A DNA stretch of 32,000 bases from Fibrobacter succinogenes subsp. succinogenes S85 (GTDB taxonomy: Bacteria > Fibrobacterota > Fibrobacteria > Fibrobacterales > Fibrobacteraceae). The translations under genes were made by a program, and so were the position numbers. Shown in pieces: positions 5,044 through 32,000 of this stretch (position 1 is the first letter of the stretch; every line of letters starts with the position of its first letter). A model generated the notes under the pieces. That model was not told the origin of the DNA. It was given only the letters and a program-made list of their open reading frames with translations, and searched no databases. The stretch spans positions 270,001 through 302,000 of the forward strand of contig NC_017448.1 of assembly GCF_000146505.1 (NCBI RefSeq). Direction: 5' to 3'.

Positions 5044-5045
5044 CC

Positions 5046-5918
5046 ATGCAAAAGATGTTTTCGACAATCATCACCGAAAATGGCGGCTATGCAGACTTGC
5101 ACATGCACACCAAGCTCTCTGACGGCACTCTATCCGTTGATGAGTTGCTCATGCTCTGCAAGCGCAAAGGTCTCCGTTGCATTTCTATCACGGATCACGA
5201 CAACCTGGATAGCTATAAGCTAGCCGAAGAGCCCGCCAAGGAAATCGGTCTTGAAATCATCCCAGGGATTGAAATTTCTGCTGTGTGGCAGGGCAAGGAC
5301 ATCCACATTCTGGGTTACTTCTGCGACCCGACGAACCTCGCCTTGAACATGGAACTTGAAGATTTCGCCAAGCAGCGCATCGCACGCGTGAAGGCGATTA
5401 TCAAAAAACTGAACGCGCTCGGCATCGGCATCACATTTGAAAAGGTACATTCGTACTGCAAGGGTAAAATCATCGGTCGCCCGCACATAGCCATGTCGCT
5501 CGTCGATGAAGAATACATTTCAAACTTTTCCGAAGCGTTCACGAAGTACCTCGGTGACGGTTGCATTGCGTTCGTCGAAAAGAAGGGCCTCAATCCGCAA
5601 GAAACAATCCGACTGATTGAAAATGCAGGCGGCATCGCGGTACTCGCCCACCCGTACAAGTCCGGGCTCAGCGACAAGTTCATCGAGAACATGGTAGAAT
5701 GGGGTATCCAGGGCATGGAAGTCTACAGCCCTGCACAAAAGGGTGCTGTTGGCCGCAAGTATAAAGAAATGGCGCAAAGGTTTGGTCTTGTGGGTACAGG
5801 CGGTTCCGACTTCCACACAGAGAACGGGACTTACCCCCCTGGTTGCATGAAAATGCCTTACACCGTTGTTCAAGCGCTCCGTGAAAGGCGCGAAAAGTCC
5901 CGCGCAGAATGGTTCTAA
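5046..5918 (+). CDS. PHP-domain metal-dependent phosphoesterase (TrpH/YciV-like)
   Basis: N-terminal YADLHMHTKLSDGTLSVDELL and ISITDHDNLD, later AHPY and GGSDFH. These are the His/Asp metal ligands of the PHP fold. Confidence 0.85.
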   Translation: MQKMFSTIITENGGYADLHMHTKLSDGTLSVDELLMLCKRKGLRCISITDHDNLDSYKLAEEPAKEIGLEIIPGIEISAVWQGKDIHILGYFCDPTNLALNMELEDFAKQRIARVKAIIKKLNALGIGITFEKVHSYCKGKIIGRPHIAMSLVDEEYISNFSEAFTKYLGDGCIAFVEKKGLNPQETIRLIENAGGIAVLAHPYKSGLSDKFIENMVEWGIQGMEVYSPAQKGAVGRKYKEMAQRFGLVGTGGSDFHTENGTYPPGCMKMPYTVVQALRERREKSRAEWF

Positions 5919-15807: not shown

Positions 15808-16548
15808 TTATCTGCCACGAGAATCGAGCATATACTTTGGAGTATTCTTGGCCCCCTTCTTCTTCAAAGCCTTGATGAGACGAGTATAGCCTTCGTTCGT
15901 AGCCCAGTCGAGCACGGAGTACCCCTGACCGCACTTGGCGTTCACATCGACACCCTTATTGATGAGGAACATCATAGCGTCGTAGTTACCGGACTTGACA
16001 GCCCAATGAATCGGCATATAGCCATCCGGGCTGCGGTTTTCAAGCGGAGCACCAGCGTTAGCGAGCACTTCGAGCATGTCAGCCTTGCCTGTCTTAGCAG
16101 CGATAAGAACTGCGGTAGCGAGGTTCTGCGGTTCAACGCCTTCCTTCTTGAGCTGATCCAAGATGCGGACGACAACTTCCTTGTTGCCCATCATGACAGC
16201 GTTATCGATAACCGGTTCACCATTGCCGTTGTTGACATTAGCTTTTGCACCGTGATCAAACAAGTAGTTGAGCACCATCATGTTGCCCTTATTGGCAGCG
16301 ATGGCGACAGCGTTATTGCCGTTATCTGCCGGCTGATCAATTTCGAAAGAAGCCTGGAGGAACAAAGTCATCTTGGCGGTATCGCTATTGACGGCATAAG
16401 AGACGAACTGGTTCGGCGTAAAGCCAATCTGCTTCTTCGTCAAATATCTACGAACAGACTGCGGGTCGTTCGGGTCCATGGTTTCTTCACAACCAGTCAA
16501 GGAAAAAATAAGACCAGCAGCACAGAGAGCCAAGATTTTCTTCTTCAT
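15808..16548 (-). CDS. Ankyrin-repeat lipoprotein
   Basis: Signal peptide with lipobox MKKKILALCAAGLIFSLTGC and GGAG 6 nt upstream of the ATG at 16548. It has several ankyrin repeats, e.g. NGNNAVAIAANKGNMMVLNYLFDHGAKANV, DGYMPIHWAVKSGNYDAMMFLINKGVDVNA and GYSVLDWATNEGYTRLIKALKKKGA. Confidence 0.85.
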   Translation of the reverse strand: MKKKILALCAAGLIFSLTGCEETMDPNDPQSVRRYLTKKQIGFTPNQFVSYAVNSDTAKMTLFLQASFEIDQPADNGNNAVAIAANKGNMMVLNYLFDHGAKANVNNGNGEPVIDNAVMMGNKEVVVRILDQLKKEGVEPQNLATAVLIAAKTGKADMLEVLANAGAPLENRSPDGYMPIHWAVKSGNYDAMMFLINKGVDVNAKCGQGYSVLDWATNEGYTRLIKALKKKGAKNTPKYMLDSRGR

Positions 16549-16656
16549 ATTATACTCCAATGAATTTTTGATTTTTCAAGTTAAAACTACACTATTTTTT
16601 TCAATTTATTACAAAAAAAACACGAATTTACACATTTTTTTATAAAAAACAAACGA

Positions 16657-19035
16657 TTATTTCTTGATTTTCTTGGTTGTCTTGATTTTTAGCTTCTCAT
16701 TGATCTTGATTTTCGTGTCTTTCAGGCCATTCCACTTCACAATATCTTCAATTGTCACGCCGTACTGGCGCGAAATATCCCAAAGGCCCTCACCCTTTTT
16801 GACCACATGAGTAATCTCTTCCACCTTCGGAGCGCTCGGTGCCGGAGCAGCAGAGCCCGGAATCTTGAGCTTTTGACCGACCTTGATATTTGAAGAATTG
16901 CCCATTTCGTTCATGTCGCGGATAGCGGCAACCGTCGTGGAAAACTTCTTGGAAATGGCAAAGAGATTGTCCCCAGGCTCAACGGTATAAATAATAGTCG
17001 TATTGACCGGGGCCTTCTTTGAAGTCTTTGTTGCAGGTTCTGGAGTCTTCTCAGCCGTCTTTTTAGCGGTCTTGCTAGACTTTTTAGAATCCGTAACGGG
17101 TTCGTTAGACTTGGAAGGTTCCACTTCAGGAACACCATCATCAACAGCGCCAGACATCCGGCGGAGTGGGCGGACATAAGCAGGAATCACAAGAGAATCA
17201 CCAATCGTCAAGCGCTTTGTAAAACCCTGATTTGCCTGCAACAGCAAGAATACAGGAACCTTGTACTTCTTAGCAATCTGAGCGTAGGTATCCCCCGCCT
17301 TGACCACATACTTTTCGCCCTTTTTAAGCGCCACACGCTGTTGGATAAAGCTCGTTGGCTTTAAATCCGGCTTAGAGACGTAAATAGTATCGCCTTTCTT
17401 GACGTTATAACCAGTTTCAATATTATTCCAAACGCGAAGCGATTCCTGAGAAACTCCAAAGCGGCGAGAAATCGAGCCAAGATTGTCGCCCAACTGAACC
17501 ACGTATGTGCGAACCTTAGTCGGCTTTTTGCCAGTAGACCTGCGCGGAGCAACCTTGATCGGAATAAGGAGCGTACGGCCGGGCTTGAGCTTGGTCTTCT
17601 TCAAGTCATTCGCTCGCTGAATTTCGGCCACGCGAACGCCATACTGCTGAGCAATCGCGCCAAGGGATTCGCCCTTGCGGACTTTGTGCTGTTTCCAGCT
17701 CGAAAAGCCGTTCTTTTCCATGCGGTCGTAATTTTGCACAAACGCAGCACGCGTCCCGTAAGGCAAACGGAGCAAATAGGCATCGCGATTGGGTGGCGTA
17801 CACCACATGGTGAGTTCCATGTTCAAAGTACGGAGCGTATCTTCGGGGACCTTCAGGAACTTAGAGATTTCGTCCATCGAGAAGGAATCGTAAACGGTTA
17901 CCGTATCGTAAGGAGCCAGCTGATGCTTGGTAACAGACACGTCGTAATGCTCTGGATAATGGCCAATGACCATCGCCGCAAGGATTCGCGGCACATAATG
18001 CATGGTCTCTTGCGGGAGCTGCAAGTCCCAATACGTTACAGGGCGATTGCCCCATGTAGAATCAGCCTTCTTTTCTCGGATCAATCGACGAATTCGGCCT
18101 TCACCGCAGTTGTAAGCGGCCATTGACAAAAGCCAGTCGCCAAATTCAGCATACAAGGTTGAAAGATAGCTCAAAGCGGCTTCGGTCGCCATTTCAGGAT
18201 TGCGACGCATATCGACCCAAAAATCAACTTCCAGGCCATAGCGGATACCCGTTTCCGGAATGAATTGCCACATACCCGCGGCCTTAGCTCGGCTATATGC
18301 CTTCACATTAAAACCAGATTCCACCAACGCCAAATAAATGAGGTCTCGCGGCATGCGCTTTTGGGCAAGCTTGGAGTAAATCAAGGAATCATAGGCCGTC
18401 TTGCGAGAAAGCGAACGCGTGATAAAACCACGTGCAGACGTCGTCATGTAGTAAATTTCTTGCATGACACGTTCGTTAAAGCGAATCGGAAGCGAAAAAC
18501 GCCCGGCATCAACGGTGTCGAGGAAATTTTCGATGACTCGCATCGATGCGCTATCCGCCGCATTTTCATCATAAGCATCCACGCCATCTATGGAAAGGCT
18601 ATCCGTCGAAGTGGAATCACTCCCCTCCTGCTCGGCTAGATTCGGGTATACATCTTCAAGAGCCTGAACAATGCGCACAGGCATCTGCATCTTGTAAATG
18701 GAATCTTCGGAACGGGTCAGCTTGCTCTTTGTTGAATCGTACTTTTCCGTTACCAAGAGACGCAAAGATTCTTCAAGATAGTGTTTAGAAACAGCCCACT
18801 GGTTGTTGTCTATCGCCTGTAAGCCATACTGATAATAGACCCAGGATGGCCTCGTGGAATCCCCTACGACTTCCTTACCCGGATTTGGTCCAGGTACATC
18901 AATAGACACCTTCTCCAGCTGGATAGGTTTCCCCTGCGATGACGCGGCAAGCTTCGCCTGCTTAGGTGCGCAGGCGGTCAGGATCAAAAAAGCAAGTGCA
19001 AGGCCGAGTCTTACAAATTTATTCGACCATATCAC
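16657..19035 (-). CDS. mltD: Membrane-bound lytic murein transglycosylase (MltD-like) with five LysM domains
   Basis: GTG start and lipobox FLILTAC. The SLT catalytic block is LALVESGFNVKAYSRAKAAGMWQFIPETG. Five LysM units are present (e.g. HKVRKGESLGAIAQQYGVRVAEIQRAN, YVVQLGDNLGSISRRFGVS, YTVEPGDNLFAISKKFSTTVAAIRDMN), separated by a Lys/Thr/Pro-rich linker. Confidence 0.9.
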   Translation of the reverse strand: MIWSNKFVRLGLALAFLILTACAPKQAKLAASSQGKPIQLEKVSIDVPGPNPGKEVVGDSTRPSWVYYQYGLQAIDNNQWAVSKHYLEESLRLLVTEKYDSTKSKLTRSEDSIYKMQMPVRIVQALEDVYPNLAEQEGSDSTSTDSLSIDGVDAYDENAADSASMRVIENFLDTVDAGRFSLPIRFNERVMQEIYYMTTSARGFITRSLSRKTAYDSLIYSKLAQKRMPRDLIYLALVESGFNVKAYSRAKAAGMWQFIPETGIRYGLEVDFWVDMRRNPEMATEAALSYLSTLYAEFGDWLLSMAAYNCGEGRIRRLIREKKADSTWGNRPVTYWDLQLPQETMHYVPRILAAMVIGHYPEHYDVSVTKHQLAPYDTVTVYDSFSMDEISKFLKVPEDTLRTLNMELTMWCTPPNRDAYLLRLPYGTRAAFVQNYDRMEKNGFSSWKQHKVRKGESLGAIAQQYGVRVAEIQRANDLKKTKLKPGRTLLIPIKVAPRRSTGKKPTKVRTYVVQLGDNLGSISRRFGVSQESLRVWNNIETGYNVKKGDTIYVSKPDLKPTSFIQQRVALKKGEKYVVKAGDTYAQIAKKYKVPVFLLLQANQGFTKRLTIGDSLVIPAYVRPLRRMSGAVDDGVPEVEPSKSNEPVTDSKKSSKTAKKTAEKTPEPATKTSKKAPVNTTIIYTVEPGDNLFAISKKFSTTVAAIRDMNEMGNSSNIKVGQKLKIPGSAAPAPSAPKVEEITHVVKKGEGLWDISRQYGVTIEDIVKWNGLKDTKIKINEKLKIKTTKKIKK

Positions 19036-19247
19036 TGGTCGAAATCCATGTCCTCGCCGTAGTCAGACCAAATGGGGTTACGGCCAAAGGATGGCTTGTC
19101 AAAATCAACTTCTTCGTCGACTTCTTCTTCCTGCGGTTCTTCTTCTTCCTTGATCAGATCATCTTCTTCGCCCAAATAGGTTGGATCCGGCGTATCATCA
19201 AACGCATCACTCTTAGGACGACGACCACAATAGTAAGCTTTATTCAT
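19032..19247 (-). CDS. Small, highly acidic hypothetical protein (71 aa)
   Basis: ATG at 19247 preceded by GAGGAA (7-nt spacer). The sequence is MNKAYYCGRRPKSDAFDDTPDPTYLGEEDDLIKEEEEPQEEEVDEEVDFDKPSFGRNPIWSDYGEDMDFDQ. Its TGA overlaps the GTG start of the mltD-like gene as GTGA. Confidence 0.5.
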   Translation of the reverse strand: MNKAYYCGRRPKSDAFDDTPDPTYLGEEDDLIKEEEEPQEEEVDEEVDFDKPSFGRNPIWSDYGEDMDFDQ

Positions 19248-19498
19248 ATAAGCTTTCCTCCAGTTTATTGCATCAATCTGTTCATGCCATATAGAATAAC
19301 TCCACACATCGCCAGTGCGGTCACGATTTGCAGGATTATAATAATCCTGTTCACCTTGTACGCCTTCTGCGACTTTCTATGCCATGGCGGCAATTTGTTT
19401 GCGGAGTTCTTGTTTCTCACTTCGGAAGTGAAATATATACATAAATTTGAAAATGCAAACAGTTAATCAAAAAAAATGTCTAAATTCTTTACGAAAAA

Positions 19499-21625
19499 AT
19501 GAAACTACTCCTATCAACCATTCTATTTTGCGCCGTTTTTCTGTTTGCGCAGTCTGGATTTTCCTTCAACAGCAGTGGAATCCATGTTCCCGGAGCCCGT
19601 ACACTCAATCCGGGTGACCTTTTTATCATGGGCGGGTTTGACATGGCTAGCAGCAACAAGCCAGCAAGCCTAGAAGGCTACATCACCGATGAAGACGGCA
19701 ATCAGAAAAAGCTCACAGAATCCCCGTCAAACTCGGTTCTCGGGTATATCGGCTATGGACTTTTGGACTATTTAGAGCTCGGACTTCACCTGAGCGTCCA
19801 TTACGATGGAGATGCAGCAGGAACAAAGCTCAAAGGTCTAGGTTTTGGCGACATAGGACTCATGGTCAAGGCTCAACCTCCAAGCCAGTCATCTAGAGAC
19901 TTGCTGAACGCCTCAGCCGCCATTGAATTTTTCCTCCCGACCGGTACAAACGAAAAAGGTCTCCGTCCAAGACACCTCTGGTACATCCACAAGAACTCAA
20001 CAACGCATTCGTATTCCTCGGCAGACTATGTCATCTCAGGAACATTGTTCTTGACAATGAACATCCACCGGAATCTCCGGTGGAACAACTATGCAGGCAT
20101 TCTTAGGACTCTGGAAAACCACGAAAACATATTCATCTGGGGCTCGGGGTTGACGCTATTCCCTTACGAATGGGTATCGCTAATTCTGGAAGCATCCGGT
20201 GAAACATGGGTGCGTTCCAAGTATATCAAGAGCGGATTCGTAAACGACCAAATCCGATTTTCTCCCGGCTTAAAGCTTAGGTTGCCTAAGTTCACGACTC
20301 TTTCTATCAATGCAGACCTCGGCATGGATCTCTTCCGCACGCGCAAGATCGGCCGTGGTCACCCCATCACCGTAAAGAACAACAGCCATACCTATAAATA
20401 CACAGTCCCCGGAAGCCCTCCTATTGCGGCATCCATCAAGCTCAGTCGAACATTTGACCTGAATGGGAAAATTGAAGACTACAAGAAGCGCATGGACTCA
20501 TGCCCCAAGTCTAGCCGAACTCTCAAGGAGAATGGTTACAAGTGCGCCCCGGACGAAGATAACGACGGCATTGCAGACGATATGGACCAATGCCCCAATA
20601 CCCCAGAAGCGGTCCTTATTGATGGCTGGGGATGTCCGTTTGACCACGATAACGACGGTGTTCCAGACTACAAGGACAAGTGTCCTGACACTAAGGAAGG
20701 ATACCCTGTTGACGAAAATGGATGTATCCGCGACGCCGACAACGACGGCGTTCCGGACGAACTGGACCAGTGTCCCGAGAGCACTCCAGACGAAGAAATC
20801 AACGAACGCGGTTGTATTCTAGATACTGATGAAGACGGCGTTCCGAACGCATTGGATTCCTGCCCGAACACCCCTGCAGGGCTCACCGTGAATAAATACG
20901 GATGTTTCTTGGACAGAGACAGAGACGGCGTTCCGGATGAATGGGACAAGTGTCCCGACAGCGCCCCAAACGAGATCGTGAACATGTACGGTTGCCCCAT
21001 TGATTCCGACGAAGACGGCATTCCCGACTTTATGGACAAATGCACAAACACACCGGCAGGCGTTAAGGTTGACAGCATTGGATGCAGACTAGACTTTGAT
21101 GGCGATGGCGTTTTTGACGAAGAGGACAAGTGTCCGGATACGCCAGAAAATGCACCAGTCGACAAGCAAGGTTGTCCGCTTGATTCGGACAAGGATGGTG
21201 TTTTTGACTATCTCGACAACTGCCCGAATACACTGGAACGTACGGAAGTTGACGTGAACGGCTGCCCCATTCGCGAAAAACTGAACTTGGACAAAATCGC
21301 AAGGCGCATCCAGTTCCACAAGGGTACCGACAAGCCGCTTAATTCCTCGTACACGGCGTTAAGCGATGTCGTATCTGTCATGCGCCATAACAAACAAATT
21401 GCGATTGAAATCCAGTGCAGCGTAAAGCCAGGTGAATCAAAGGACCCGCAAGCATTATCTGACGCCCGAGCCACCATGGTCTATGAGTTCATCGTGAACA
21501 AGGGAATCAAGGAAGAAAAGCTCAGAGCGAACGGATTTGGATTACAGCTACCACAAGTGCGTGGGCATTCAAAGCTCAACCCTGTTGGCGTGAGACTTTT
21601 GCCGTACAACATCAAGGACGAGTAG
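19499..21625 (+). CDS. OmpA-family outer-membrane protein with thrombospondin type-3 (TSP3) calcium-binding repeats
   Basis: Signal peptide MKLLLSTILFCAVFLFAQS, an N-terminal barrel-like region, eight D-x-D-x-DG-x-x-D-x-x-D-x-C repeats, and a C-terminal OmpA-like domain (IQFHKGTDKPL...LSDARATMVYEFIVNKGIKEEKLRANGFG). Confidence 0.9.
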   Translation: MKLLLSTILFCAVFLFAQSGFSFNSSGIHVPGARTLNPGDLFIMGGFDMASSNKPASLEGYITDEDGNQKKLTESPSNSVLGYIGYGLLDYLELGLHLSVHYDGDAAGTKLKGLGFGDIGLMVKAQPPSQSSRDLLNASAAIEFFLPTGTNEKGLRPRHLWYIHKNSTTHSYSSADYVISGTLFLTMNIHRNLRWNNYAGILRTLENHENIFIWGSGLTLFPYEWVSLILEASGETWVRSKYIKSGFVNDQIRFSPGLKLRLPKFTTLSINADLGMDLFRTRKIGRGHPITVKNNSHTYKYTVPGSPPIAASIKLSRTFDLNGKIEDYKKRMDSCPKSSRTLKENGYKCAPDEDNDGIADDMDQCPNTPEAVLIDGWGCPFDHDNDGVPDYKDKCPDTKEGYPVDENGCIRDADNDGVPDELDQCPESTPDEEINERGCILDTDEDGVPNALDSCPNTPAGLTVNKYGCFLDRDRDGVPDEWDKCPDSAPNEIVNMYGCPIDSDEDGIPDFMDKCTNTPAGVKVDSIGCRLDFDGDGVFDEEDKCPDTPENAPVDKQGCPLDSDKDGVFDYLDNCPNTLERTEVDVNGCPIREKLNLDKIARRIQFHKGTDKPLNSSYTALSDVVSVMRHNKQIAIEIQCSVKPGESKDPQALSDARATMVYEFIVNKGIKEEKLRANGFGLQLPQVRGHSKLNPVGVRLLPYNIKDE
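20552..21268 (+). repeat. In-frame array of eight roughly 29-30-aa TSP3 repeats
   Basis: The array runs DEDNDGIADDMDQCPNTPEAVLIDGWGCP, FDHDNDGVPDYKDKCPDTKEGYPVDENGCI, ... LDSDKDGVFDYLDNCPNTLERTEVDVNGCP. The DNA period is about 87-90 bp, with recurring GACGGCGTTCCGGA. Confidence 0.85.
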
Positions 21626-21882: not shown

Positions 21883-23532
21883 TTACTTCACGGTAATCTG
21901 GAATTTCTTGTCGCCAGCGTTGACCTGGTAGTAACCCTTGAAACCGCGGAACTTGGCTTCGCCATTTTCATCAGCGGTAGCGTAGAGGTCCGTTGTCCAG
22001 ACCTTGTGCCACAAGTCGTAAACGCGCTTTGCAGCAGGCTTTTCGCGACCATCAGAAGCGATCATGCCGCCATTCTTGACCCAGTGACGGTTGTCCCAGA
22101 AGCCCCAGAACACAATGCCGTTCACAGCCGGGTGGCTAAATGCGGTACGAAGGAAAGTTTCGAACTTTTCAGCCTGGACTTCTTCGGTGTCGTTCATACC
22201 AGCCTGCCAGTCGCCCACGTCGAATTCTGTAACCTTGATCGGGAGGCCAAGGGAAGCGAGCTTGTCCAAGCGTTCCTTGATGAGGCTCGGCACAACCGGA
22301 CGGAGCCCAAAGTGGCACTGCACGCCAATGCCCATCACAGGCACCTTGCGTTCGAGCATACCCTTAATCAAGCCATAATAGCGATCCGTTTCACCTGCAG
22401 CAACGACGTTGTAATCGTTGATGTAAAGGAATGCGCTCGGATCAGCCTTGTGAGCCCAAATGAAGGCACTGTCGAGAATGCCCCAGCCGCACTTGTTGAA
22501 CGTCCAGGATTCGTGAATCGGTTCGTTCCACACGTCGTATTCCGTAATCTTGCCCTTGTATTCCTTGAGGTCGCGATAGATACGTGCCTTGAGCTTTTCA
22601 GCCATTTCTTCGCAGCGACCCTTGTTGCTGTAGTGCTTGTCAAAACCATAGCCCTGGTGGCTCCACATGAGCGCGTGACCGCGGAGTTTCCAGTGATTTT
22701 GAGCTGTGAAGTCCGTGTATTCCTTCATTTCATCACGCTTGATTTTGCCCTTCTTCGGTTCGTATTCCGGCCACTTGAACTGGTTTTCAGAAACGCCATG
22801 CCAGAAGTACTTTTTGGCAGCGTTGCGGTACCAATTTTCGGTGCTATCCTTGGTGTCGTAGAGAGCGAGCGCCGTACCGAACGGGAACGAATGGCGCAAC
22901 AGCTTCACGTGGACTTTTTCGCCCGGATTTGCCTTGACCGTGAAATCCACCTTGCGGAGGCTATCGATACGGGCATCGGCATTGTTATACCAGGACGGGT
23001 CAGACATTTCGTCCATCTTTTCGACTTCGACATCGTCGAGCTGGATCCAGCCCTTCTTAAGCCCAATCTGGAACGTAATGTTGTTGAGACCGTAACCCTT
23101 CTGGTCGGCAAGGAAAATCATTTCATAAGTCTGCCACTTGTCTGTCAAGTCAAACGAAGCGCTTTCTTTTTGGCGGTAGTCCGGAGGGCCGCCCTGCACC
23201 ACAGAATTGATAGGCATATTGCCCTTAGCCTTGAACGAGAGCTTGTAAAAACCGGAGTCTGCCAAGAATTTAGGCGGTTGGAGCTGCAAGCCCCACCACG
23301 GATTTGGAAGTTCCTTCACGACGACCTTAGCGCCCTGGGAACCATCGACACCGAGCCCCTGCACGGCAATTTGCGATTCGGCTACAGCTGGACCATCAGG
23401 ATTGTTCCACAGATACCAGCCGCCGTCACCATACTCCATATCACCATTGTTCAACTGTGCAAAAGACGGCACAGAAAGCGCCATGGCGACGGTCGCCGCA
23501 ATCGCAAAAGCTTTATTCTTTTTAAAATTCAT
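21883..23532 (-). CDS. Secreted endo-1,4-beta-xylanase, GH10 catalytic domain with N-terminal CBM4_9/CBM22-like module
   Basis: Signal peptide MNFKKNKAFAIAATVAMALSVPSFAQ, starting at the internal ATG at 23532 with GAGGTG upstream. GH10 blocks are RGHALMWSHQ, YDVWNEPIHE (acid/base Glu), LYINDYN, GIGVQCH, IKVTEFDV (nucleophile Glu) and VFWGFWD. Confidence 0.9.
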   Translation of the reverse strand: MNFKKNKAFAIAATVAMALSVPSFAQLNNGDMEYGDGGWYLWNNPDGPAVAESQIAVQGLGVDGSQGAKVVVKELPNPWWGLQLQPPKFLADSGFYKLSFKAKGNMPINSVVQGGPPDYRQKESASFDLTDKWQTYEMIFLADQKGYGLNNITFQIGLKKGWIQLDDVEVEKMDEMSDPSWYNNADARIDSLRKVDFTVKANPGEKVHVKLLRHSFPFGTALALYDTKDSTENWYRNAAKKYFWHGVSENQFKWPEYEPKKGKIKRDEMKEYTDFTAQNHWKLRGHALMWSHQGYGFDKHYSNKGRCEEMAEKLKARIYRDLKEYKGKITEYDVWNEPIHESWTFNKCGWGILDSAFIWAHKADPSAFLYINDYNVVAAGETDRYYGLIKGMLERKVPVMGIGVQCHFGLRPVVPSLIKERLDKLASLGLPIKVTEFDVGDWQAGMNDTEEVQAEKFETFLRTAFSHPAVNGIVFWGFWDNRHWVKNGGMIASDGREKPAAKRVYDLWHKVWTTDLYATADENGEAKFRGFKGYYQVNAGDKKFQITVK

Positions 23533-23764
23533 GAGGACACCTCGGTTATGTTTACAGGTTAAATATATACTCGAAGTGCGTTTTTCGGGCGATTTAGGGC
23601 ATATTTTAGGCAGACTAAAACACAAACGAGAGAAAAAATGTAACAAGTGTATCAATCCTATACAATTGCGATTCTCTAATTTTACAAGTTTTCCTGATGA
23701 AGCGTATTTTTTCAAGAGATGAAGAGATTTGAGATTTTCAATACAAATTGTATATTATAAGCAA

Positions 23765-24724
23765 ATGAAATTCTCAAAACTCTTTATTATTGTTTTGTTT
23801 TTTGCATTTATGACCGCCTGCGATAATGGCGATAGTTTAGACATCACAAGCGTCGAAGAAAACAAGCAATTTTCATTCGAAGTCTATTTAGAAAGCCGCA
23901 TCATCCCCGATTCCGCAATCGTTTCAATGTACAATAGCAGCAACCGTCTTGAAAAAACGGTCAAGACGCGAAAAAAATGCTTTGCGGGAGCAAAATGCAT
24001 GTTTGAAACTGCGCCGCTTAAATATGAGGAATATGCAAAAATCACTTTATTCGCCCATGCCACAACCGAAAACAAAACAATCCAAATGGAATTTGAGCGA
24101 TACGCTCCAATGAACACATCAACGTCAACAATAAACGTTTATTACGGAACTCCAGTTTTAAATATTTACACAGCAGCCGCATCAAAAGCGATTGAATACA
24201 ACTTGCTCGAAAAGAACATGTCATACGGTGATGCGACGCAAAATGCATACGACAATATGAAAAATTTCGGGATTTCAGACCGAGAATACGAAAAAGACCA
24301 ATATTTTCCGAATGTTTCTTCAATGAACCCCATACAACTCCCCTACATTTATTGCCGCTATTTTCTCTCTGATTCCGTATTTTACAGCGACTTTCTCGAA
24401 TTGCAAGAGGCCATCCGCGACGGAGAATGGGCAGATACGTTATTCCGCATCCGAGCCGCCGACGATTTAGCACGCACTTATCAAAACCCAAACTGGGTCG
24501 ATGTTCCTGGAATGACTTTTTACAACCAAAATGAATATATTCCCAACTTTTGGGAAAGTGCCTTCGGCATGGAAGTCTGCAACGACAAGAATATTGGAGA
24601 TACGCTTATCAACGCCAACCGAAGAAGCTCACTCTACGATAGCGTTTTCGTTTGCACAGAACAAATGTATTCCTACTATGCCAAATGGCAGCACTGGGTA
24701 CTCAGCCGACCACAACGAGATTAA
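23765..24724 (+). CDS. Lipoprotein A of the island operon (shared N-module + one Cys-pair repeat)
   Basis: Lipobox MKFSKLFIIVLFFAFMTAC. It shares motifs with the next two genes (SDSVFYSDFLELQEAIRDGEWADTLF; FWESAFGMEVCND). The track ORF opens at an upstream TTG at 23729. Confidence 0.7.
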   Translation: MKFSKLFIIVLFFAFMTACDNGDSLDITSVEENKQFSFEVYLESRIIPDSAIVSMYNSSNRLEKTVKTRKKCFAGAKCMFETAPLKYEEYAKITLFAHATTENKTIQMEFERYAPMNTSTSTINVYYGTPVLNIYTAAASKAIEYNLLEKNMSYGDATQNAYDNMKNFGISDREYEKDQYFPNVSSMNPIQLPYIYCRYFLSDSVFYSDFLELQEAIRDGEWADTLFRIRAADDLARTYQNPNWVDVPGMTFYNQNEYIPNFWESAFGMEVCNDKNIGDTLINANRRSSLYDSVFVCTEQMYSYYAKWQHWVLSRPQRD

Positions 24725-24742
24725 AAGATAATGGGTGTGGAA

Positions 24743-26986
24743 ATGAAATCTAAGATATTATTTGGTGTTTTGATCTCAATGTTCATCGCCATACTGGCGG
24801 CGTGTGGTTCGGACACTTATTACTCCGGCCATTTTGAAGATTTAGATGATAATTTCGGCAAGTCCTCTTCTAAAATCACAAGTAGCACAAGCCAAATATT
24901 CAACGAAAACATTGCTTTTGAAGGCCGATTCAACCTAGTATCCGTTTTTGAGCCTATTAAACTTGAAATATCCGCACTGGACGAAAACTTTGAAAAAACA
25001 CAAACCATCGAAGCACGCATTGTAAGGAACAGGCTAGAGTTTACATACAAAGCTCCAGAAATTCACTTTTATAGACCTTTTGCTCAACTGGATTTCACTT
25101 GCCGATTCCGCGACACAAAAGACAATACCGAAATGCAGTTCACCATCATCGCTGACATGAACGAAAAAGAGTACTACAATATTGATTTTTATAGAACTCT
25201 AGAAAGCGGATACATGAAAAAGCTCTTACAACAGAAGGAAAACTTTGACATAGCAAGGCAACACACTCGTGAAGCAATACACAATCTTTTAGATCCAGAA
25301 CTTGAACACGAATACGGCATTAGTAATGCCCCATACGGCAAGGACACACTTGAAGCACTTGCTTATAACTACAGTCTTTTTTTCACATGGGATTCCACAT
25401 TCTACAAGAATTTCAAGAAACTTTCGCAGGCTGTAGGAAGCGACAAGACTTGGGATGAAATTTTATCTGTTTCTGATATTTCGGAACGGCTTATTGACCA
25501 TTATAGACTTGAAGAATCCCGCTGCGACAAGAACGTTCTCGAAAACATCGCTCAAGACCGTGATTTTTCTCAGCTCCGTTATAATATGGCCATATGGATT
25601 GCACAAGGGAAAAATGACATTGACTGCAATGCCATCCCACAAAAACCGGCAATTGATACAACAAAAAAAGATACAACTTCAAAAGACCCTATTATCGAAA
25701 AATTTGGGAACTGCACAGTCAACAGAAAGCACACCAAAGCAAAACTTGGAGACGGTGAATATTACAGCTGCAACGGAACCAAATGGATTTCCGTAAGCGC
25801 CCCAGAATACCATGAAGATTTCGGCAAAAGAGGTGAAATAGTCACCTACGATGACTCTTACTTCATGTGCAATTACGAGTATTCGTGGCGCCTTTTAAAT
25901 GACGATGAAATTCTCCCGCCTGTCAAAGACTTATTAAAATGCAATGACCATCAAGTTGTTGAATACGACAACAAATATTACCGTTGCAGATTCGAATACG
26001 TTTCGCTCGTAAATCAAGACGCTTGGCTTGAAATTCCAGAGGACAGTGTTGCGCAGTACCAAAAGAATGGCAAATTCTGCACAGATTCCACACAAGGAAT
26101 TACCGAGGAAGAAAATGGTTCATACTTTACCTGCAATCATTATTCGTGGACTAAACTTTTGGACTATGAGAAAAAACAGTACGAACACGAATTAGCCCAC
26201 AAAGATGAATGCAAAAACGGCAACAAAGGAACTGCGATATATTGGAACAACTCAAACTACTTCTACTGCAATAACGATACGCGCAATTGGAAATCCATGG
26301 GCATTCAAAATCAAGAGCACTATGGATTAGGAATATTTGATGGAGGCGTATTCATAAGTAAAGACACCCTTGAAAAGGAAATAGACGATTTTACGATTAA
26401 AGCTTCGCAAAGACCTGGATGGATTGCAGGGTTATTCGACGTCATAAATGTTACGGCAAATATTAATTCGCATCCCTACGGAGCATTTTTCAAAAAGACT
26501 CGCCCTTACCTTTCAGGATTACGAGGAGACAAGACTATAGACTTTAAAAATCTGTCTGACCAAAGCGAAAGCTTTGACAAATTCATGGAACAGTACACGC
26601 ACCCCGAAAGCGCCTACCCTGCCTATATCGCTCAATTGACAAACGTAGGCGAAGAATCCTATATAGATTTTGCTACAGCCGATAAATTCTGCCCTAAAGG
26701 CTACCACATCCCCGATACAACCGAATGGAGGACGGATTCGTTAAATGCACTTCCGATAAACGCAAGTATTTACCACGACAGCCCATTATACGTACGTTAC
26801 AACGGGAAAACATACCTCTACGATATTTACTGGACAAAGACTCCCGTAAATTCAACGACCCAATACTGTATCGAAAATCATTCTGAAAACAACCAAAACA
26901 CATCAAGCCGAATAATTGAATGCCCCAAAGACTTGTATCCAGGCGTACAAACATTATGCATTAAGGATGGTGAGTCAAATGATTAG
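24743..26986 (+). CDS. Lipoprotein B (shared N-module, five Cys-pair-type repeats, FISUMP-like C-terminal domain)
   Basis: Lipobox MKSKILFGVLISMFIAILAAC. The C-terminus ...ADKFCPKGYHIPDTTEWR...YWTKTPVNSTTQYCIE...IIECPKDLYPGVQTLCIKD resembles the Fibrobacter succinogenes major paralogous domain (TIGR02145). Confidence 0.8.
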   Translation: MKSKILFGVLISMFIAILAACGSDTYYSGHFEDLDDNFGKSSSKITSSTSQIFNENIAFEGRFNLVSVFEPIKLEISALDENFEKTQTIEARIVRNRLEFTYKAPEIHFYRPFAQLDFTCRFRDTKDNTEMQFTIIADMNEKEYYNIDFYRTLESGYMKKLLQQKENFDIARQHTREAIHNLLDPELEHEYGISNAPYGKDTLEALAYNYSLFFTWDSTFYKNFKKLSQAVGSDKTWDEILSVSDISERLIDHYRLEESRCDKNVLENIAQDRDFSQLRYNMAIWIAQGKNDIDCNAIPQKPAIDTTKKDTTSKDPIIEKFGNCTVNRKHTKAKLGDGEYYSCNGTKWISVSAPEYHEDFGKRGEIVTYDDSYFMCNYEYSWRLLNDDEILPPVKDLLKCNDHQVVEYDNKYYRCRFEYVSLVNQDAWLEIPEDSVAQYQKNGKFCTDSTQGITEEENGSYFTCNHYSWTKLLDYEKKQYEHELAHKDECKNGNKGTAIYWNNSNYFYCNNDTRNWKSMGIQNQEHYGLGIFDGGVFISKDTLEKEIDDFTIKASQRPGWIAGLFDVINVTANINSHPYGAFFKKTRPYLSGLRGDKTIDFKNLSDQSESFDKFMEQYTHPESAYPAYIAQLTNVGEESYIDFATADKFCPKGYHIPDTTEWRTDSLNALPINASIYHDSPLYVRYNGKTYLYDIYWTKTPVNSTTQYCIENHSENNQNTSSRIIECPKDLYPGVQTLCIKDGESND

Positions 26987-29543
26987 ATATTTCTTGATTC
27001 TTTGCTTAGGAATTTTTCTCACCTCTTGTAGCGACGACAATTCAGCAGGTTCTAGCATTCATTATGTTGAAGGCAATGAAAATGTTGAAAGTCGGACCTT
27101 GGCGCTTCAAGGCAAATTCAGCCTAAACAACAAGCTTATTCCTGTTAAAATAGACATTGATGTTGTTGATGAAAATCTTGATTCCATAGCGACGATAAAA
27201 GCGTCATTGAAAAAAGAGCGAAACGGCACCATTACATTTTCATCGGATTACGACGATTTTGCATCGTCAATCGTACGCATCAAGTATACTTGCGCTTATA
27301 ACGATTCTTCTAGCAAGCTTAAAATGGATTTTGTTGAATACATCAATATTGATAAGAATCCAAGACCAACATTAAATCTGCCCATGGCGTTGGCAAGCGA
27401 ACGTATCAAAGAACTCGTGCAAGAAGACGGATTTTATCTTGCCCGTGCTAAAGAAAAAGTACTCCGAGAAATTTTTGAACTTCTGGATTACAACAACAAG
27501 CAGATTATAGATTTTGAGCAAGATTCAAGCAGCAAGCATCTTGCAGGACTGAATCAACATGTCAATATGATAAGCACGGTTGAAAAGAGCGATAGCGCTT
27601 TTTACAAGAACTACAAATCATTACGTTCTGCAGTCGGCAGCGAAAAAACATGGCAAGATATTCTTTCGGAAACAGAAATTGCGGACATGGCTTTTGCACA
27701 CGATCCCGACATCATTTACGCCGATTATTGGACGAAAGCTTTTGGACTCGGAAGTTGTGACAGCACCCATTTTCAAGACACAACGATAATTTCAAATAAA
27801 GAAAGCGTTTACAATAAAAAGAAATTCTTGTGCGATTACAAAAACAAGACATATTATTGGCGCACATTTAACGATGTAGAAGCAGTAAATGGCTTATGCA
27901 CGTACGACAGAAAAGATACCGTCATTCAAGATAGTCTCGTATGGACTTGTGATTCAGCTAAGACAAAATGGAACGTAATGTCAGGGGAACAAGCACTCCC
28001 CTATAAGAACATCAGCTGTGATAAAATTTTAGAAGGCACATACATCAACTATAATTCAAATAATTTTGCATGCGTCTACGAAAACAACAAATTCATTTGG
28101 AAAGACAGTGTTTCCGAAAACTACAAATGGCGCAATTCATTGGACGTCTACCTCAAAAATAAAGTCGGCTTGTGCGATGAAGACAACTCGCTTGGAAGAT
28201 CAACCATTATGGATAACAAGTATTATCAATGTCGCGATGGTATTTGGACCGAAGTAGACAAGATTTCGTATTACTTGGGATACTGCAACAAATCTAGAAC
28301 CAACGACAAAGCCATGCACGATTCTGTCGGGTATTTCATTTGCAATGACAAATGGACTGAAATTCCAATACCACAATATTACGGCGATATATGCACAAAA
28401 GGATTTGTTCATTACGCAAAAAAATACGGCGATACCTATTACATTTGTAAAGACCAACCAAATTACTATTGGTCTGTAGCGTTAAAAGAAGAACTTTCTA
28501 TCCCTATACAGAACGATTATTTTTGCGAAGAAGAAAACAATGGTGAAGTTTTTGAACTTGATGCTGTAGGCTATAAATGCGTTTACCCAATATGGCAATA
28601 TGCCCAAGATTTTGAAGTTAAAGTCAGTAAAGCAATGGAGCGTAACAAATATTCCAAAGACATGTGCAAAAAAGGCCCCGCCAACTCATCTATATTTTGG
28701 GATAAAATAGATTCAACATTCTACGGGTGTGTCGATAACTATACAGAAGCCAACTACGGATGGGGCAAAGTATTTTGGAACAATTACAACAACCCTCTTA
28801 CTAAATTTAAGAGTCCTGAAGAGTTCGCAGGTGGCACTTATGATAGCTTGAAAAACTATAAAGTAAACGGATGGACATTAACATTTTCGTATGGTTCCTC
28901 TTCATTAAATGGTAGTATAGAGTACATAACACTCTACCTGAAAAAAGCTATATCACCTAAAGGTGATGAATACGATATTCAAGAGGGGAATAATGTAACC
29001 GTCATTCGTGCCGCCGCAGGAAATAAAACTGTTTCTTTCGACAGCATTACAAACAAAAGCGATTCCTTTGACAAATACTTTACCGATTGGAAAAATAAAA
29101 TCATCGAATCCACACAATGCCCCACCCCGATGTTACCTGAATTTAAATGCGTTTCAAATTGGGATGAATCCGACATCGAAATCAATTTCACCAATTACAA
29201 CCAAAATTCATACACAACTTGGAATCAAGCAAAAAGTTTTTGCCCAGAAGGCACACATATTCCAAGTGCCGAAGAATTGTCCATTAGCAATTATGCCGCT
29301 TCGTTCAATAACGAGCGCTTTACCGCAGTGCAGCAGAAAATGAACAATGGTAAAAAAGGGAGTTTTTCAGCAAACTACGCTCTTGTATGGACAAGCACAG
29401 AAAAAGATTCAAAGACACAATACTGCCTTGAATATGTGAAATCCAATAGCAATCAAGTTGTTGCAAGCGGCATTGTAGAATGCCCGAAAGACCTCTACCC
29501 CATGGCACAAGCTATCTGCATTAGCGACCGGAGCAAAAAATGA
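26979..29543 (+). CDS. Lipoprotein C (paralog of B; eight Cys-pair repeats, FISUMP-like C-terminal domain)
   Basis: Lipobox MIRYFLILCLGIFLTSC. The ATG at 26979 overlaps the end of gene B by 8 nt. The C-terminus reads ...AKSFCPEGTHIPSAEEL...VWTSTEKDSKTQYCLE...IVECPKDLYPMAQAICISD. Confidence 0.8.
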   Translation: MIRYFLILCLGIFLTSCSDDNSAGSSIHYVEGNENVESRTLALQGKFSLNNKLIPVKIDIDVVDENLDSIATIKASLKKERNGTITFSSDYDDFASSIVRIKYTCAYNDSSSKLKMDFVEYINIDKNPRPTLNLPMALASERIKELVQEDGFYLARAKEKVLREIFELLDYNNKQIIDFEQDSSSKHLAGLNQHVNMISTVEKSDSAFYKNYKSLRSAVGSEKTWQDILSETEIADMAFAHDPDIIYADYWTKAFGLGSCDSTHFQDTTIISNKESVYNKKKFLCDYKNKTYYWRTFNDVEAVNGLCTYDRKDTVIQDSLVWTCDSAKTKWNVMSGEQALPYKNISCDKILEGTYINYNSNNFACVYENNKFIWKDSVSENYKWRNSLDVYLKNKVGLCDEDNSLGRSTIMDNKYYQCRDGIWTEVDKISYYLGYCNKSRTNDKAMHDSVGYFICNDKWTEIPIPQYYGDICTKGFVHYAKKYGDTYYICKDQPNYYWSVALKEELSIPIQNDYFCEEENNGEVFELDAVGYKCVYPIWQYAQDFEVKVSKAMERNKYSKDMCKKGPANSSIFWDKIDSTFYGCVDNYTEANYGWGKVFWNNYNNPLTKFKSPEEFAGGTYDSLKNYKVNGWTLTFSYGSSSLNGSIEYITLYLKKAISPKGDEYDIQEGNNVTVIRAAAGNKTVSFDSITNKSDSFDKYFTDWKNKIIESTQCPTPMLPEFKCVSNWDESDIEINFTNYNQNSYTTWNQAKSFCPEGTHIPSAEELSISNYAASFNNERFTAVQQKMNNGKKGSFSANYALVWTSTEKDSKTQYCLEYVKSNSNQVVASGIVECPKDLYPMAQAICISDRSKK

Positions 29544-30157
29544 TGAAGTATTTAAAAAGCATATTTACTTTTTTAGTTGTTTTGACTGCGCTATTTTGGA
29601 GCGGTTGCACAACCGATTATGAAATTGAAAAGGAAGTTCATAATTGGAGCTTTGTCGGGCTTGATAACGACTCCACCGCAGTTGTCAAAGTGGTTTTGGA
29701 GCAATGGGGAACCTCACACGACCATCATCTTATGGGATGGGACGATGACTTTCACAATACCACAGACTTAAAATACTACTCCGTCAATATCAATTCTTAT
29801 AAGATAAGTGAACGACTGAACGGAGACAGAAAAATGCTGCCGGAGCAAGATTCAACAGAAGAATACCGCATAAAAGCTGAAAAGATTGTAGACTATTCTT
29901 GGACATGCGCAATTATTTTACAGGACAAGAAAAAGAAAAATCTGGACACCTTGGAAATTGACTATTGCCCCAAAGAAAATTCTGCAGAAACACCAAAGTT
30001 TGTCGGCCGCTATTTAAAAATCAACAACTGTTTCTACAAAATTGAAAAAGGGAAATTTCCGATTCAAAAGCCCGAATTTTGCTTCGACCATACAGATTAT
30101 AGCGTAAAATTCACCCATACCGATGGCAAATTTATCATGTACGGTGGTGAACCGTAA
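29540..30157 (+). CDS. Lipoprotein D (205 aa, no family recognised)
   Basis: Lipobox MMKYLKSIFTFLVVLTALFWSGC. Its start overlaps the stop of gene C as ATGA. Confidence 0.7.
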   Translation: MMKYLKSIFTFLVVLTALFWSGCTTDYEIEKEVHNWSFVGLDNDSTAVVKVVLEQWGTSHDHHLMGWDDDFHNTTDLKYYSVNINSYKISERLNGDRKMLPEQDSTEEYRIKAEKIVDYSWTCAIILQDKKKKNLDTLEIDYCPKENSAETPKFVGRYLKINNCFYKIEKGKFPIQKPEFCFDHTDYSVKFTHTDGKFIMYGGEP

Positions 30158-30174
30158 CCACTATTAACTATTTT

Positions 30175-31082: not shown

Positions 31083-31598
31083 ATGAAACGTATTGAAGAT
31101 TACATTATTGCGGTTCCGGATTTTCCCAAGCCGGGAGTTTTGTTCCGTGACATCACAGGAATTTTGAGCGATCCCGATGGATTAAAGCTCACGCTTGATA
31201 CTTTCTATAAGACGCTTGAAAATGTTGATTTTGACGTAGTCGTAGGGCTAGAAGCACGCGGATTCCTATTTGGTGTTCCGATTGCAGAGCATTTCCACAA
31301 GCCGTTTGTCCCTGAGCGCAAAAAAGGGAAACTCCCCCGCGAGACTGTAGAAATCACTTACAATCTCGAATACGGAACCGCCTGTATGGAAGTCCATAAA
31401 GATGCGATAAAGCCAGGGCAACGCGTTGTTATCGTCGATGACTTGCTCGCCACTGGCGGAACTGCAAAAGCTGCCGCCCATCTTGTAGAGAAAATGGGCG
31501 GTAAAGTAGAATGTTTTGCTTTTGTCATTGAGCTTGCGGACCTTAAAGGTAGCGAAGTTCTTGATGGCTACCGCGTGGAATCGCTGACGAAGTTTTAA
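31083..31598 (+). CDS. apt: Adenine phosphoribosyltransferase
   Basis: 171 aa with FPKPGVLFRDIT, GLEARGFLFG and the PRPP-binding VVIVDDLLATGGTAKAA. GAGGGGA lies upstream of the ATG. Confidence 0.93.
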   Translation: MKRIEDYIIAVPDFPKPGVLFRDITGILSDPDGLKLTLDTFYKTLENVDFDVVVGLEARGFLFGVPIAEHFHKPFVPERKKGKLPRETVEITYNLEYGTACMEVHKDAIKPGQRVVIVDDLLATGGTAKAAAHLVEKMGGKVECFAFVIELADLKGSEVLDGYRVESLTKF

Positions 31599-32000
31599 AC
31601 ACGCTTGAAGATAAGCGAAGTATTGATGCCGCCGAACGCAAAGTTATTCGACATAAAATATTCCGTATCAATTTCACGCCCGGAACCCGTGATGTAATCC
31701 AACGGAGCGCATTCCGGGTCCACATTTTTCAAATTCAAATTCGGGCTAAACCATCCGCGATTCATCATGTTGATGCCAAGCCAGGCCTCGATACCGCCGC
31801 ATGCGCCAAGCGTATGGCCCATGTAGCTCTTGAGGCTAGAAATCGCCACGGCACGCTGCTTAAAAGCGTTGTATGTCGCCCAGCTTTCAGCAATATCGCC
31901 ATGATGCGTTGCGGTACCATGGCCATTCACATAGCCAATCGCATCCGTTGAAATTTCGGCATCTTTTAAAGCCAATTCCAGCGCACGTTGCATCGTATCT
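31595..32000 (-). CDS. Beta-ketoacyl-ACP synthase (KAS I/II family), C-terminal part; N-terminus lies beyond the right edge
   Basis: NGHGTATHHGD and SYMGHTLGACGG (the active-site His blocks), with C-terminal NNFAFGGINTSLIFKRV. The ORF is open to position 32000. Confidence 0.85.
   Translation of the reverse strand, partial: DTMQRALELALKDAEISTDAIGYVNGHGTATHHGDIAESWATYNAFKQRAVAISSLKSYMGHTLGACGGIEAWLGINMMNRGWFSPNLNLKNVDPECAPLDYITGSGREIDTEYFMSNNFAFGGINTSLIFKRV

Follow-up and report, generated by a model that had tools for sequence, protein, structure and literature searches.

A hypervariable cassette of four predicted lipoprotein genes, two of them with divergent FISUMP-like ends, in Fibrobacter succinogenes S85

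Background

Fibrobacter succinogenes is among the main degraders of cellulose in the rumen, and the means by which its surface recognises substrates and partners are still to be worked out. In F. succinogenes subsp. succinogenes S85, a window of 32,000 nt (NC_017448.1 positions 270,001-302,000; the whole stretch of DNA analysed here, to whose first letter the coordinates below refer unless a contig is named) contains a block of four consecutive genes at 23765-30157, here called A to D, whose products are annotated as hypothetical or putative lipoproteins and nothing further. What do these four genes do for the cell? A literature search by locus tag returned no study of them, bar one RNA-seq supplementary table. 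The initial annotation of the window had described an AT-rich lipoprotein operon, back to back with a xylanase gene and resembling an adhesin, a pilus-like or a glycan-binding assembly. The comparisons presented below favour, with a probability of about 0.55, a Fibrobacter-specific operon of four envelope lipoproteins that would act together at the outer membrane as an array for lectin-like recognition, under selection for diversity. What is new here is the fixed A-B-C-D organisation, protein D, the gene-wise exchange of alleles and the locus as a hypervariable recombination hotspot; the literature search found no report of a hypervariable mosaic locus for genes of the FISUMP family, to whose superfamily A, B and C belong.

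Allelic variation and mosaic structure of the cassette

Between strains the flanking proteins are 93-100% identical, as against 52-68% for A-D. The isolates compared were S85 and UWB12 only, all other compared sequences being metagenome-assembled genomes (MAGs) or metagenome contigs. Between these two isolates the flanking genes are well conserved, with 94% protein identity for the upstream glycoside hydrolase of family 10 (GH10) and 97% for the downstream radical-SAM protein (rSAM), whereas A, B, C and D share only 63%, 58%, 61% and 68%, respectively. Nonsynonymous divergence (dN) is 0.23-0.31 in the cassette vs. 0.02-0.03 in the flanks, and synonymous divergence (dS), which reaches about 0.8 in the flanks, is saturated in A-D. 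Clustering at 90% identity gives the same picture, with 418 members in the cluster of GH10 and 720 in that of rSAM vs. 19-36 for each of A-D.

The divergence is not spread evenly over the four genes. A rumen contig (L010) and the MAG RUG12208 have nearly identical GH10 (99%), A (99%) and rSAM (100%) proteins, whereas B, C and D are 61%, 52% and 75% identical; at the nucleotide level, an identity of 98-100% drops to 53-81% where A meets B and is back at 100% inside D. UWB12 and RUG12208, on the other hand, share B and C at 89-90% and A and D at 76-77%. An even sharper case is S85 compared with rumen contig L020, where B and C are 96-97% identical as proteins and A and D 63-65%, and where sliding nucleotide identity is ~99% in B-C, ~94% in the flanks and 57-78% in A and D, so that a B-C exchange segment can be delimited (Table 1). 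In the comparison of S85 with contig L018 it is the whole cassette that is less diverged than its surroundings (dS 0.01-0.05 vs. 0.17-0.54 in the flanks), with a dN/dS of 0.22-0.49 in the cassette vs. 0.04-0.05 in the flanks.

Taken as a whole, the pairwise contrasts indicate that old and deeply diverged alleles are carried from one genomic background to another by homologous recombination. They further indicate that A, the B-C pair and D act as separate units of exchange, and that selection on them is apparently relaxed or partly diversifying. Such piecemeal swapping between strains makes the cassette look like a fast-evolving recognition module of the cell envelope, and we argue that these allele dynamics point to a selective agent outside the cell, which fits surface exposure of the products.

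Architecture of proteins A, B and C and their relationship to FISUMP lipoproteins

Proteins B and C are homologous along their full length (E 3e-41, 23% identity), and A matches C (E 2e-9) and B (E 5e-5) over the N-terminal ~300 aa; judged by these scores, the paralogy of A to B and C is real but weak. The initial annotation had proposed that the three diverge in the number of a repeated module, and this held in a regular-expression scan, which finds one two-cysteine module in A, five in B and eight in C. The grading is maintained across lineages, with lengths of 435-450, 740-765 and 854-899 aa and 1-3, 5 and 8 modules. In an alignment of C orthologues the Cys pairs are invariant in every module, and invariant Cys, Trp and Tyr residues are regularly spaced. 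C was modelled with AlphaFold2 on 11 sequences (mean pLDDT 70.6), and the model resolves the order of domains given in Table 1; the tip, as we call the C-terminal lectin-class domain, shows the highest conservation (64% mean pairwise identity) and the beta-domain before it the lowest (34-37%).

Protein A has the N-terminal beta-sandwich and helical base in common with B and C, followed by one cysteine module, and has no lectin tip. Relatives 92% identical to the S85 protein have 442 aa and three modules. The S85 gene has thus lost ~125 C-terminal codons, amounting to two cysteine modules, by a deletion that ends just upstream of B (24700-24742), and no remnant of the lost tail was found in the window. 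The truncation accounts for the 18-nt gap between A and B, a junction at which UWB12 has a 4-nt overlap. The 319-aa form of A is also present on many other contigs.

None of the four proteins has a significant family in Pfam, NCBIfam, PADLOC or PHROGs, the last giving only noise at E>0.06. Sequence profiles of C, D and canonical FISUMP relatives found no match in the PDB, and neither the C model nor the D model had a Foldseek match in the PDB with a meaningful TM-score. Nor do B and C of the window match the FISUMP models PF09603 and TIGR02145, even at E<=1, and they lie below the curated gathering score. Sub-threshold matches to these models do occur in 5 of 11 C orthologues (E>=0.033), and close paralogues match TIGR02145 with E values of 2e-4 to 1e-3, at the motif that also forms the core of the profile alignment described below.

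The wider relationship became apparent with profile searches. A word-indexed search returned 10 clusters of C homologues, whereas an exhaustive HMMER profile search returned 306 representatives at E<=1e-3 (152 at <=1e-10). Many of these relatives are 900-1400 aa long and match C in the helical region and several modules, and 33 of the 43 scanned carry a true C-terminal PF09603 Fib_succ_major domain and match profile positions ~115-550. Their consensus starts with a lipobox and the N-domain, continues with many 'GxC...YxCxxxxW' repeats and ends with canonical FISUMP motifs. When the C-terminal 165 residues of the B/C family were aligned with FISUMP domains by hhalign, the probability was 92% (E 5.6e-7), with a confident core of only 18 columns (FCPeGsHIPsAeE vs. 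CPxGWHLP); in a relaxed alignment of 130 columns the W-[ST] motif and then the terminal Cys (C-x-x-D) follow in unchanged order. The secondary structure of the tip in the C model (beta, alpha, alpha, five strands) is compatible with a C-type-lectin-like fold, for which Foldseek with the full-length model gave no counterpart among its top PDB matches.

The FISUMP-like ends that the initial annotation had noticed on B and C were therefore borne out at profile level, and its statement that no protein of the block falls into a recognisable family of known function was upheld by the family libraries for all four and by the structure searches for C and D. What it had missed is the wider relationship: we conclude from these comparisons that A, B and C are members of a large Fibrobacter FISUMP-lipoprotein superfamily, in which A is a tip-less paralogue; the system is thus not an orphan. 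Since the B/C tips fall short of the curated thresholds, we file them as a divergent variant and not as standard FISUMP members.

The FISUMP model has 54 matches in the S85 genome, and its members have been proposed, without a test, as cellulose-binding proteins or cohesin analogues (PMC4704652). FISUMP has also been described as a lipoprotein-associated, Cys-containing domain of the C-type-lectin class that is targeted by diversity-generating retroelements (DGRs), as in the surface lipoprotein LdtA of Legionella (PMC5758913), and the function of the family as a whole is still obscure in the literature (PMC4704652, PMC5758913). The cassette proteins share with canonical FISUMP lipoproteins the lipoprotein signal, the N-terminal helical region, the repeated 'G-x-C ... 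Y-x-C-x4-W' modules with presumably disulfide-forming Cys residues and, in B and C, the C-terminal series CPxG(W)H(L/I)P, W-[ST] and Cys-x-x-D. They differ in that the B and C tips lie below both model thresholds and A has none, and in that the cassette has a fixed A-B-C-D order with a unique D at a hypervariable, mosaic locus.

Protein D

Protein D is unrelated in build to A-C. Its homologues form 21 clusters, none of them with a Pfam domain, and no D-like domain was found fused to the large relatives of C. The AlphaFold2 model is all-beta and well defined (pLDDT 87.6, pTM 0.76), and Foldseek searches with it against the PDB and BFVD gave nothing meaningful (TM-scores <0.3). Conservation in the homologue alignment is concentrated in a His/Asp loop (Table 1), where G57, H60, D61, H63, M65, G66, D68, D69, D70 and F71 are invariant, and at the extreme C-terminus, YGGxP (Y201, G202, G203, P205). 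The His/Asp cluster suggests a putative metal site.

Distribution, genomic context and expression

Every taxonomically labelled relative belongs to Fibrobacter, and D stands directly behind a C-like gene in every locus long enough to judge. The arrangement of S85, with GH10 on one side of A-B-C-D and rSAM on the other, is found in UWB12, RUG12208 and five rumen contigs (L010, L011, L018, L019, L020). In lineages of 54-56% GC (L003, L004, L006, L022-L025) the same four genes have UDG and phosphoglucomutase genes downstream and canonical FISUMP genes upstream. On the contig L003 of a 56%-GC lineage (3130-4993), two such genes lie within ~2 kb upstream on the opposite strand. Contig L007 carries a shorter cassette of B-like, C-like and D genes (1087-6971), and L008/L009 (5949-10651) encode an A-like protein of 449 aa, a C-like protein of 899 aa with a faint PF09603 match and a D-like protein of 216 aa, next to HD-domain and Plug genes. 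Adjacency to GH10 is thus confined to a F. succinogenes-like clade, and five other contexts have different neighbours. Because the flanks differ between lineages, it is the cassette that is the conserved unit and the GH10 link that is clade-specific; the gene order was kept in every related locus of sufficient length.

Expression levels were taken from the RNA-seq data of Burnet et al. 2015 (PMC4668043, S1 Table), as reads per kilobase per million mapped reads (RPKM) on cellulose/glucose. The values are 178/18 for GH10, 13/6 for A, 25/11 for B, 26/12 for C, 29/11 for D, 182/154 for rSAM and 169/108 for apt, the adenine phosphoribosyltransferase gene beyond rSAM (PMC4668043). The cassette is thus ~2.3-fold higher on cellulose than on glucose, as compared with ~10-fold for GH10, and on cellulose it is ~7-14 times below GH10. 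Its low and uniform levels fit a single transcript, in agreement with the co-transcription assumed in the initial annotation. The rSAM gene, although it begins only 17 nt past the stop codon of D, must have its own promoter. In the S85 cell-envelope proteome of Raut et al. 2019 the list of identified proteins jumps from FSU_0253 to FSU_0263, which leaves C and D absent from that proteome, and the accession prefix of B had no match in the list.

These data bear on the function that had been suggested by the position of the block next to a xylanase gene. The neighbour does belong to GH10, but the S85 genome paper equates Fisuc_2992 with the chloride-stimulated cellobiosidase, citing a study of cellulose-binding proteins, so that it is not simply a xylanase; and with adjacency limited to one clade and unequal induction of the two units, a functional link between the cassette and this enzyme is not supported. 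A plant-fibre adhesin set acting together with GH10, whose lectin-like tips would attach to cellulose or hemicellulose and so keep the cell, or else the enzyme, in place on the fibre, nevertheless has several points in its favour, namely the cellulose-binding or cohesin-like role proposed for FISUMP/TIGR02145 proteins (PMC4704652), the back-to-back position with the gene named chloride-stimulated cellobiosidase (S85 genome paper) and the higher expression on cellulose. Against it stand the UDG/phosphoglucomutase, HD-domain/Plug or other neighbours outside the one clade and an expression far below that of GH10 on the very substrate. Moreover, an invariant substrate such as cellulose leaves the 52-68% allelic divergence and the swapping between near-identical strains unexplained. 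We consider this explanation unlikely. Given the low expression of the cassette, and with its products missing from the envelope proteome, cellulose adhesion itself probably has another explanation.

Proposed function of the cassette

We propose that the cassette encodes a lectin-like recognition array. Proteins A, B and C would be lipid-anchored stalks, in each of which a flexible linker is followed by an Ig-like beta-sandwich, then by a helical domain and finally by two-cysteine beta-hairpin modules in a chain, which are probably disulfide-bonded. At their far end B and C carry a divergent FISUMP domain, most likely a tip for ligand binding, because its C-type-lectin class is the one targeted by DGRs in other bacteria. 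Protein D could serve as a small, beta-rich and probably metal-binding partner or assembly factor for A-C, and all four together may make up the array on the outer membrane. An external antagonist or a variable ligand might then select for diversity in it; under such selection each strain would come to carry very different alleles, recombined as whole genes or gene pairs within a conserved frame. Candidates for the selective agent are phage, protozoa, host antibody, competitors and variable glycans. The data themselves show the gene structure, the lipoboxes, the domain architecture, the superfamily membership, the synteny, the GC dip, the hypervariability and mosaicism, and a low transcription slightly induced by cellulose. 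We infer that the proteins are exposed at the surface, bind a ligand and associate with one another, that D binds metal, and what kind of agent selects on them.

Several points weigh against it. The cassette is weakly expressed, and neither C and D nor the prefix of B appear in an envelope proteome that does contain their neighbours. Foldseek with the full-length 854-aa C model found no C-type-lectin structure among the top PDB matches, so that the assignment of the tip depends on sequence profiles and motif order. The tip is the best-conserved part of C, which is not expected under simple antigenic variation of a binding site. Chimeric assembly of MAGs or metagenome contigs could mimic mosaics, although the contrast between S85 and UWB12 is independent of these. 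Finally, export, lipidation and surface exposure are here predicted from sequence, and the mutual interaction of A-D is presumed. The cassette may be regarded as a good lead for Fibrobacter surface biology and for strain typing, with a presumed function and low expression.

It is also conceivable that the four proteins are outer-membrane lipoproteins facing the periplasm, with a structural or housekeeping role and a fast evolution that results from weak constraint. A lipobox by itself is silent on the orientation of a lipoprotein, and the low expression, a dN/dS below 1 (0.22-0.49) and the truncation of A in S85 without obvious consequence would all be in line with such a role. The pattern of dS, far under the flanks in some pairs and saturated in others, is that of balancing or diversifying selection and not of drift alone. 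In addition, the residues that follow the lipobox Cys are acidic (CDNGD, CGSD, CSDD and CTTD in A, B, C and D), and acidic residues behind the lipidated Cys resemble the surface-export signal of Bacteroidota lipoproteins, a comparison that for Fibrobacter is drawn by likeness and may argue against a periplasmic orientation. Long modular stalks with lectin-class tips also resemble surface proteins, and the related LdtA is surface-exposed (PMC5758913). A role inside the periplasm thus seems to us rather improbable.

A bolder version of the recognition array, to which we give only a small chance, would make it a Fibrobacter-specific 'surface barcode' of strain identity, with three lectin-tipped stalks at fixed, graded heights, a metal-binding lipoprotein of new fold and gene-by-gene allele swapping under frequency-dependent selection. 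It could serve to recognise other cells or to be recognised by them, in phage or protozoan attachment, in kin discrimination, or in docking partner proteins as the suspected cohesin analogue. If this were true, D would represent a new protein fold and family, and the cassette would offer the first functional handle on the 54-member FISUMP family. 

Whichever reading is preferred, the cassette is a tractable subject of study: its four genes form a fixed unit, the domain boundaries are clear, there is a dedicated partner with a conserved His/Asp site, and it shows a strong population-genetic signal of selection from outside the cell. It would also be useful as a strain-typing locus for rumen Fibrobacter, the alleles of which could be compared with phage host range or strain competition.

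Base composition

The block has a GC content of 39.3%, as compared with 49.4% in the rest of the window, and GC at third codon positions (GC3) is 0.40-0.46 in the cassette vs. 0.57-0.65 in the genes next to it (OmpA-like, GH10 and radical-SAM). The compositional distinctness estimated by hand in the initial annotation is thus confirmed by a full scan, and since GC3 is also low, the dip exists at codon level and is not due to amino-acid composition alone. It recurs in UWB12 (37.7% vs. 45-48%), RUG12208 and the contigs L019-L021 and L007, but amounts to only 1-4 points in the lineages of 54-56% GC. The most economical reading is that the alleles keep their AT-rich codon usage because they are expressed weakly and pass around within a recombining pool; no single import from a distant donor has to be assumed. 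Three further short dips (0.39-0.41) at 1501-2000, 16501-17000 and 19001-19500 are probably intergenic.

Decaying foreign DNA, that is, an AT-rich acquired island that is poorly expressed and has no present function, would agree with the 10-point GC dip and low GC3, with the low RPKM values and absence from the envelope proteome, and with the truncated A of S85. We nevertheless hold it to be very improbable. Four intact frames are found in the same order in lineages that are only 30-45% identical, many residues are invariant, including those of the Cys scaffold and, in D, of the His/Asp loop, and dN/dS is well below 1. The compositional argument is weakened by the lineages of 56% GC, whose cassette is close to the host. 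There is, moreover, neither a tRNA nor, in the neighbouring genes that were scanned, an integrase-type Pfam domain, and no phage family was matched.

Comparison with known systems

A classical mobile island was rejected because of the missing tRNA, the lack of an integrase-type domain among the scanned neighbours and the lack of viral contigs. Anti-phage defence or prophage cargo was discarded as well, there being no PADLOC match, only noise in PHROGs and no relative of D among the IMG/VR viral contigs.

The hypervariable loci of other bacteria offer a parallel. O-antigen and capsule clusters in Enterobacteria are hypervariable surface loci that lie between conserved flanking genes. By analogy, the cassette may be likened to them in its GC content below that of the genome, its conserved flanks, its deeply diverged alleles at one site and their replacement through homologous recombination, be it at conserved junctions or within the flanks. 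It differs in that it encodes lipoproteins and not enzymes of sugar biosynthesis, and in that the unit of exchange is a single gene or a gene pair.

The variable proteins of DGRs (DUF1566/Fib_succ_major class, e.g. Legionella LdtA) are likewise lipoproteins with a C-terminal lectin-class domain that differs strongly from cell to cell or strain to strain. The cassette, in contrast, varies by allelic recombination of whole genes, the tip of C is its most conserved part, and neither a reverse transcriptase nor a template/variable repeat pair was found with it in the ORFs and repeats scanned. The only family of direct repeats of >=40 nt in the 32-kb window is that of the thrombospondin type 3 (TSP3) repeats of the OmpA-like gene, and no reverse-transcriptase domain was found in ten scanned open reading frames (ORFs), which include the immediate neighbours, the other ORFs of the window not having been scanned. 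The block was therefore rejected as a DGR target locus.

Type V pili and Sus-like lipoproteins of Bacteroidota resemble the cassette as lipoprotein gene clusters of the FCB group with a presumed role at the cell surface, but no pilin or SusD/E/F family or fold was found in the cassette, and the window holds no neighbouring SusC-type TonB-dependent transporter. A Sus-like polysaccharide utilisation locus was rejected on the same grounds, with no SusD match in A-D and with GH10 and an OmpA/TSP3 protein as the neighbours at one end, rSAM and apt at the other. The likeness to a type V (Mfa/FimA-like) pilus, or to another polymerising fibre made from lipoprotein precursors, which had been raised in the initial annotation, is superficial (four graded lipoprotein genes with a small accessory gene as in fim/mfa operons, and the invariant YGGxP end of D) and is disfavoured as the least probable explanation, since no FimA/Mfa Pfam family and no pilin among the Foldseek PDB matches of C or D was found, and since type V pilins consist of two transthyretin-like beta-sandwich domains, whereas the cassette layout has Ig-like, helical and cysteine modules and a lectin-like tip.

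Gene layout and neighbouring genes

The four genes lie on the same strand with the coordinates and spacing that had been claimed for them, namely an 18-nt gap between A and B, an 8-nt overlap between B and C and a 4-nt ATGA overlap between C and D (Table 1). The lipoprotein signals noted earlier were also found with a PROSITE-type lipobox rule, which all four N-termini satisfy, and across the orthologue alignments the lipobox Cys shows little or no variation. The overlapping junctions are retained in orthologues. The start of B is ambiguous, with an ATG at 24731 in GenBank (751 aa, leaving a gap of 6 nt) and at 24743 in RefSeq (747 aa), and the lipobox is intact either way. Protein A is 100% identical to an S85 'putative lipoprotein', and locus tags were obtained by exact-sequence look-up; as the GH10 gene Fisuc_2992 is FSU_0257 according to the S85 genome paper and apt is FSU_0263 according to the published proteome table, A-D correspond to FSU_0258-0261.

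Table 1 Coordinates of the cassette, its protein domains and its neighbours in the window (nt, window positions; aa, protein positions)
Feature	Position	Strand	Length	Identifiers	Details
Gene A	23765-24724	+	319 aa	Fisuc_2993 / FSU_0258	lipobox MTAC, Cys19
Gene B	24743-26986	+	747 aa	Fisuc_2994 / FSU_0259, UniProt D9S580	lipobox LAAC, Cys21
Gene C	26979-29543	+	854 aa	Fisuc_2995 / FSU_0260, UniProt C9RPP3	lipobox LTSC, Cys17
Gene D	29540-30157	+	205 aa	Fisuc_2996 / FSU_0261, UniProt C9RPP4	lipobox WSGC, Cys23
B-C exchange segment vs. L020	24830-29480				approximate breakpoints at both ends; dS 0.05-0.06 vs. 0.22-0.36 in flanks
B, five cysteine modules	~nt 25625-26290				module scan
B, FISUMP-like C-terminal domain	~nt 26558-26983				motif FCPKGYHIPDTTEW ... 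YWTKT ... ECPKDLYPGVQTLCIKD aligns with C family and FISUMP profiles
C, disordered linker after signal peptide	aa 18-43				AlphaFold2 model
C, beta-sandwich	aa 44-133, nt 27108-27377				AlphaFold2 model
C, helical domain	aa 134-255, nt 27378-27743				AlphaFold2 model
C, eight cysteine modules	aa 256-600, nt 27744-28778				small, three-stranded, Cys pair and aromatic residues
C, variable beta-domain	aa 601-692, nt 28779-29054				AlphaFold2 model
C, FISUMP-like lectin-class alpha/beta domain	aa 693-850, nt 29055-29528				model and profiles
D, His/Asp loop	aa 57-71, nt 29708-29752				'GTSHDHHLMGWDDDF', invariant in homologue alignment
Upstream intergenic region	23533-23764	+			common to cassette and divergent GH10 gene; presumed cassette promoter region
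GH10 gene	21883-23532	minus		Fisuc_2992 / FSU_0257	
Radical-SAM gene (rSAM)	17 nt (30158-30174) past stop codon of D			Fisuc_2997	TIGR01212 family
apt (adenine phosphoribosyltransferase)	31083-31598			FSU_0263	GC3 0.44
OmpA-family protein with TSP3 repeats	19499-21625				seven 90-nt DNA repeats at 20540-21230

Scans for sigma-70-like promoters and intrinsic terminators gave counts no higher than in shuffled sequence, and operon boundaries can therefore not be set from the sequence. The upstream intergenic region contains long stretches that are conserved among four divergent alleles. A phase-variable invertible promoter was rejected on account of this conservation, the only inverted repeat being an imperfect one of 22 nt that overlaps the start of A.

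Beyond rSAM, the apt gene stands before the ketoacyl synthase gene only in loci of the S85 type (also L012-L018) and not in UWB12, RUG12208, L010/L011 or L021, and looks like a strain-specific insertion or deletion beside the cassette. The minus-strand cluster that follows (31595-32000 of the window, continuing into L012 9421-16888) encodes two ketoacyl synthases, a ketoreductase, an ApeP-like dehydratase, an MMPL exporter, a LolA-like protein, a thioesterase and an aromatic ammonia-lyase, a set typical of aryl-polyene pigment biosynthesis. On the other side of the cassette, the OmpA/TSP3 protein shares only 77-79% identity in strains that have 93-94% in GH10, and is therefore also a fast-evolving envelope protein.

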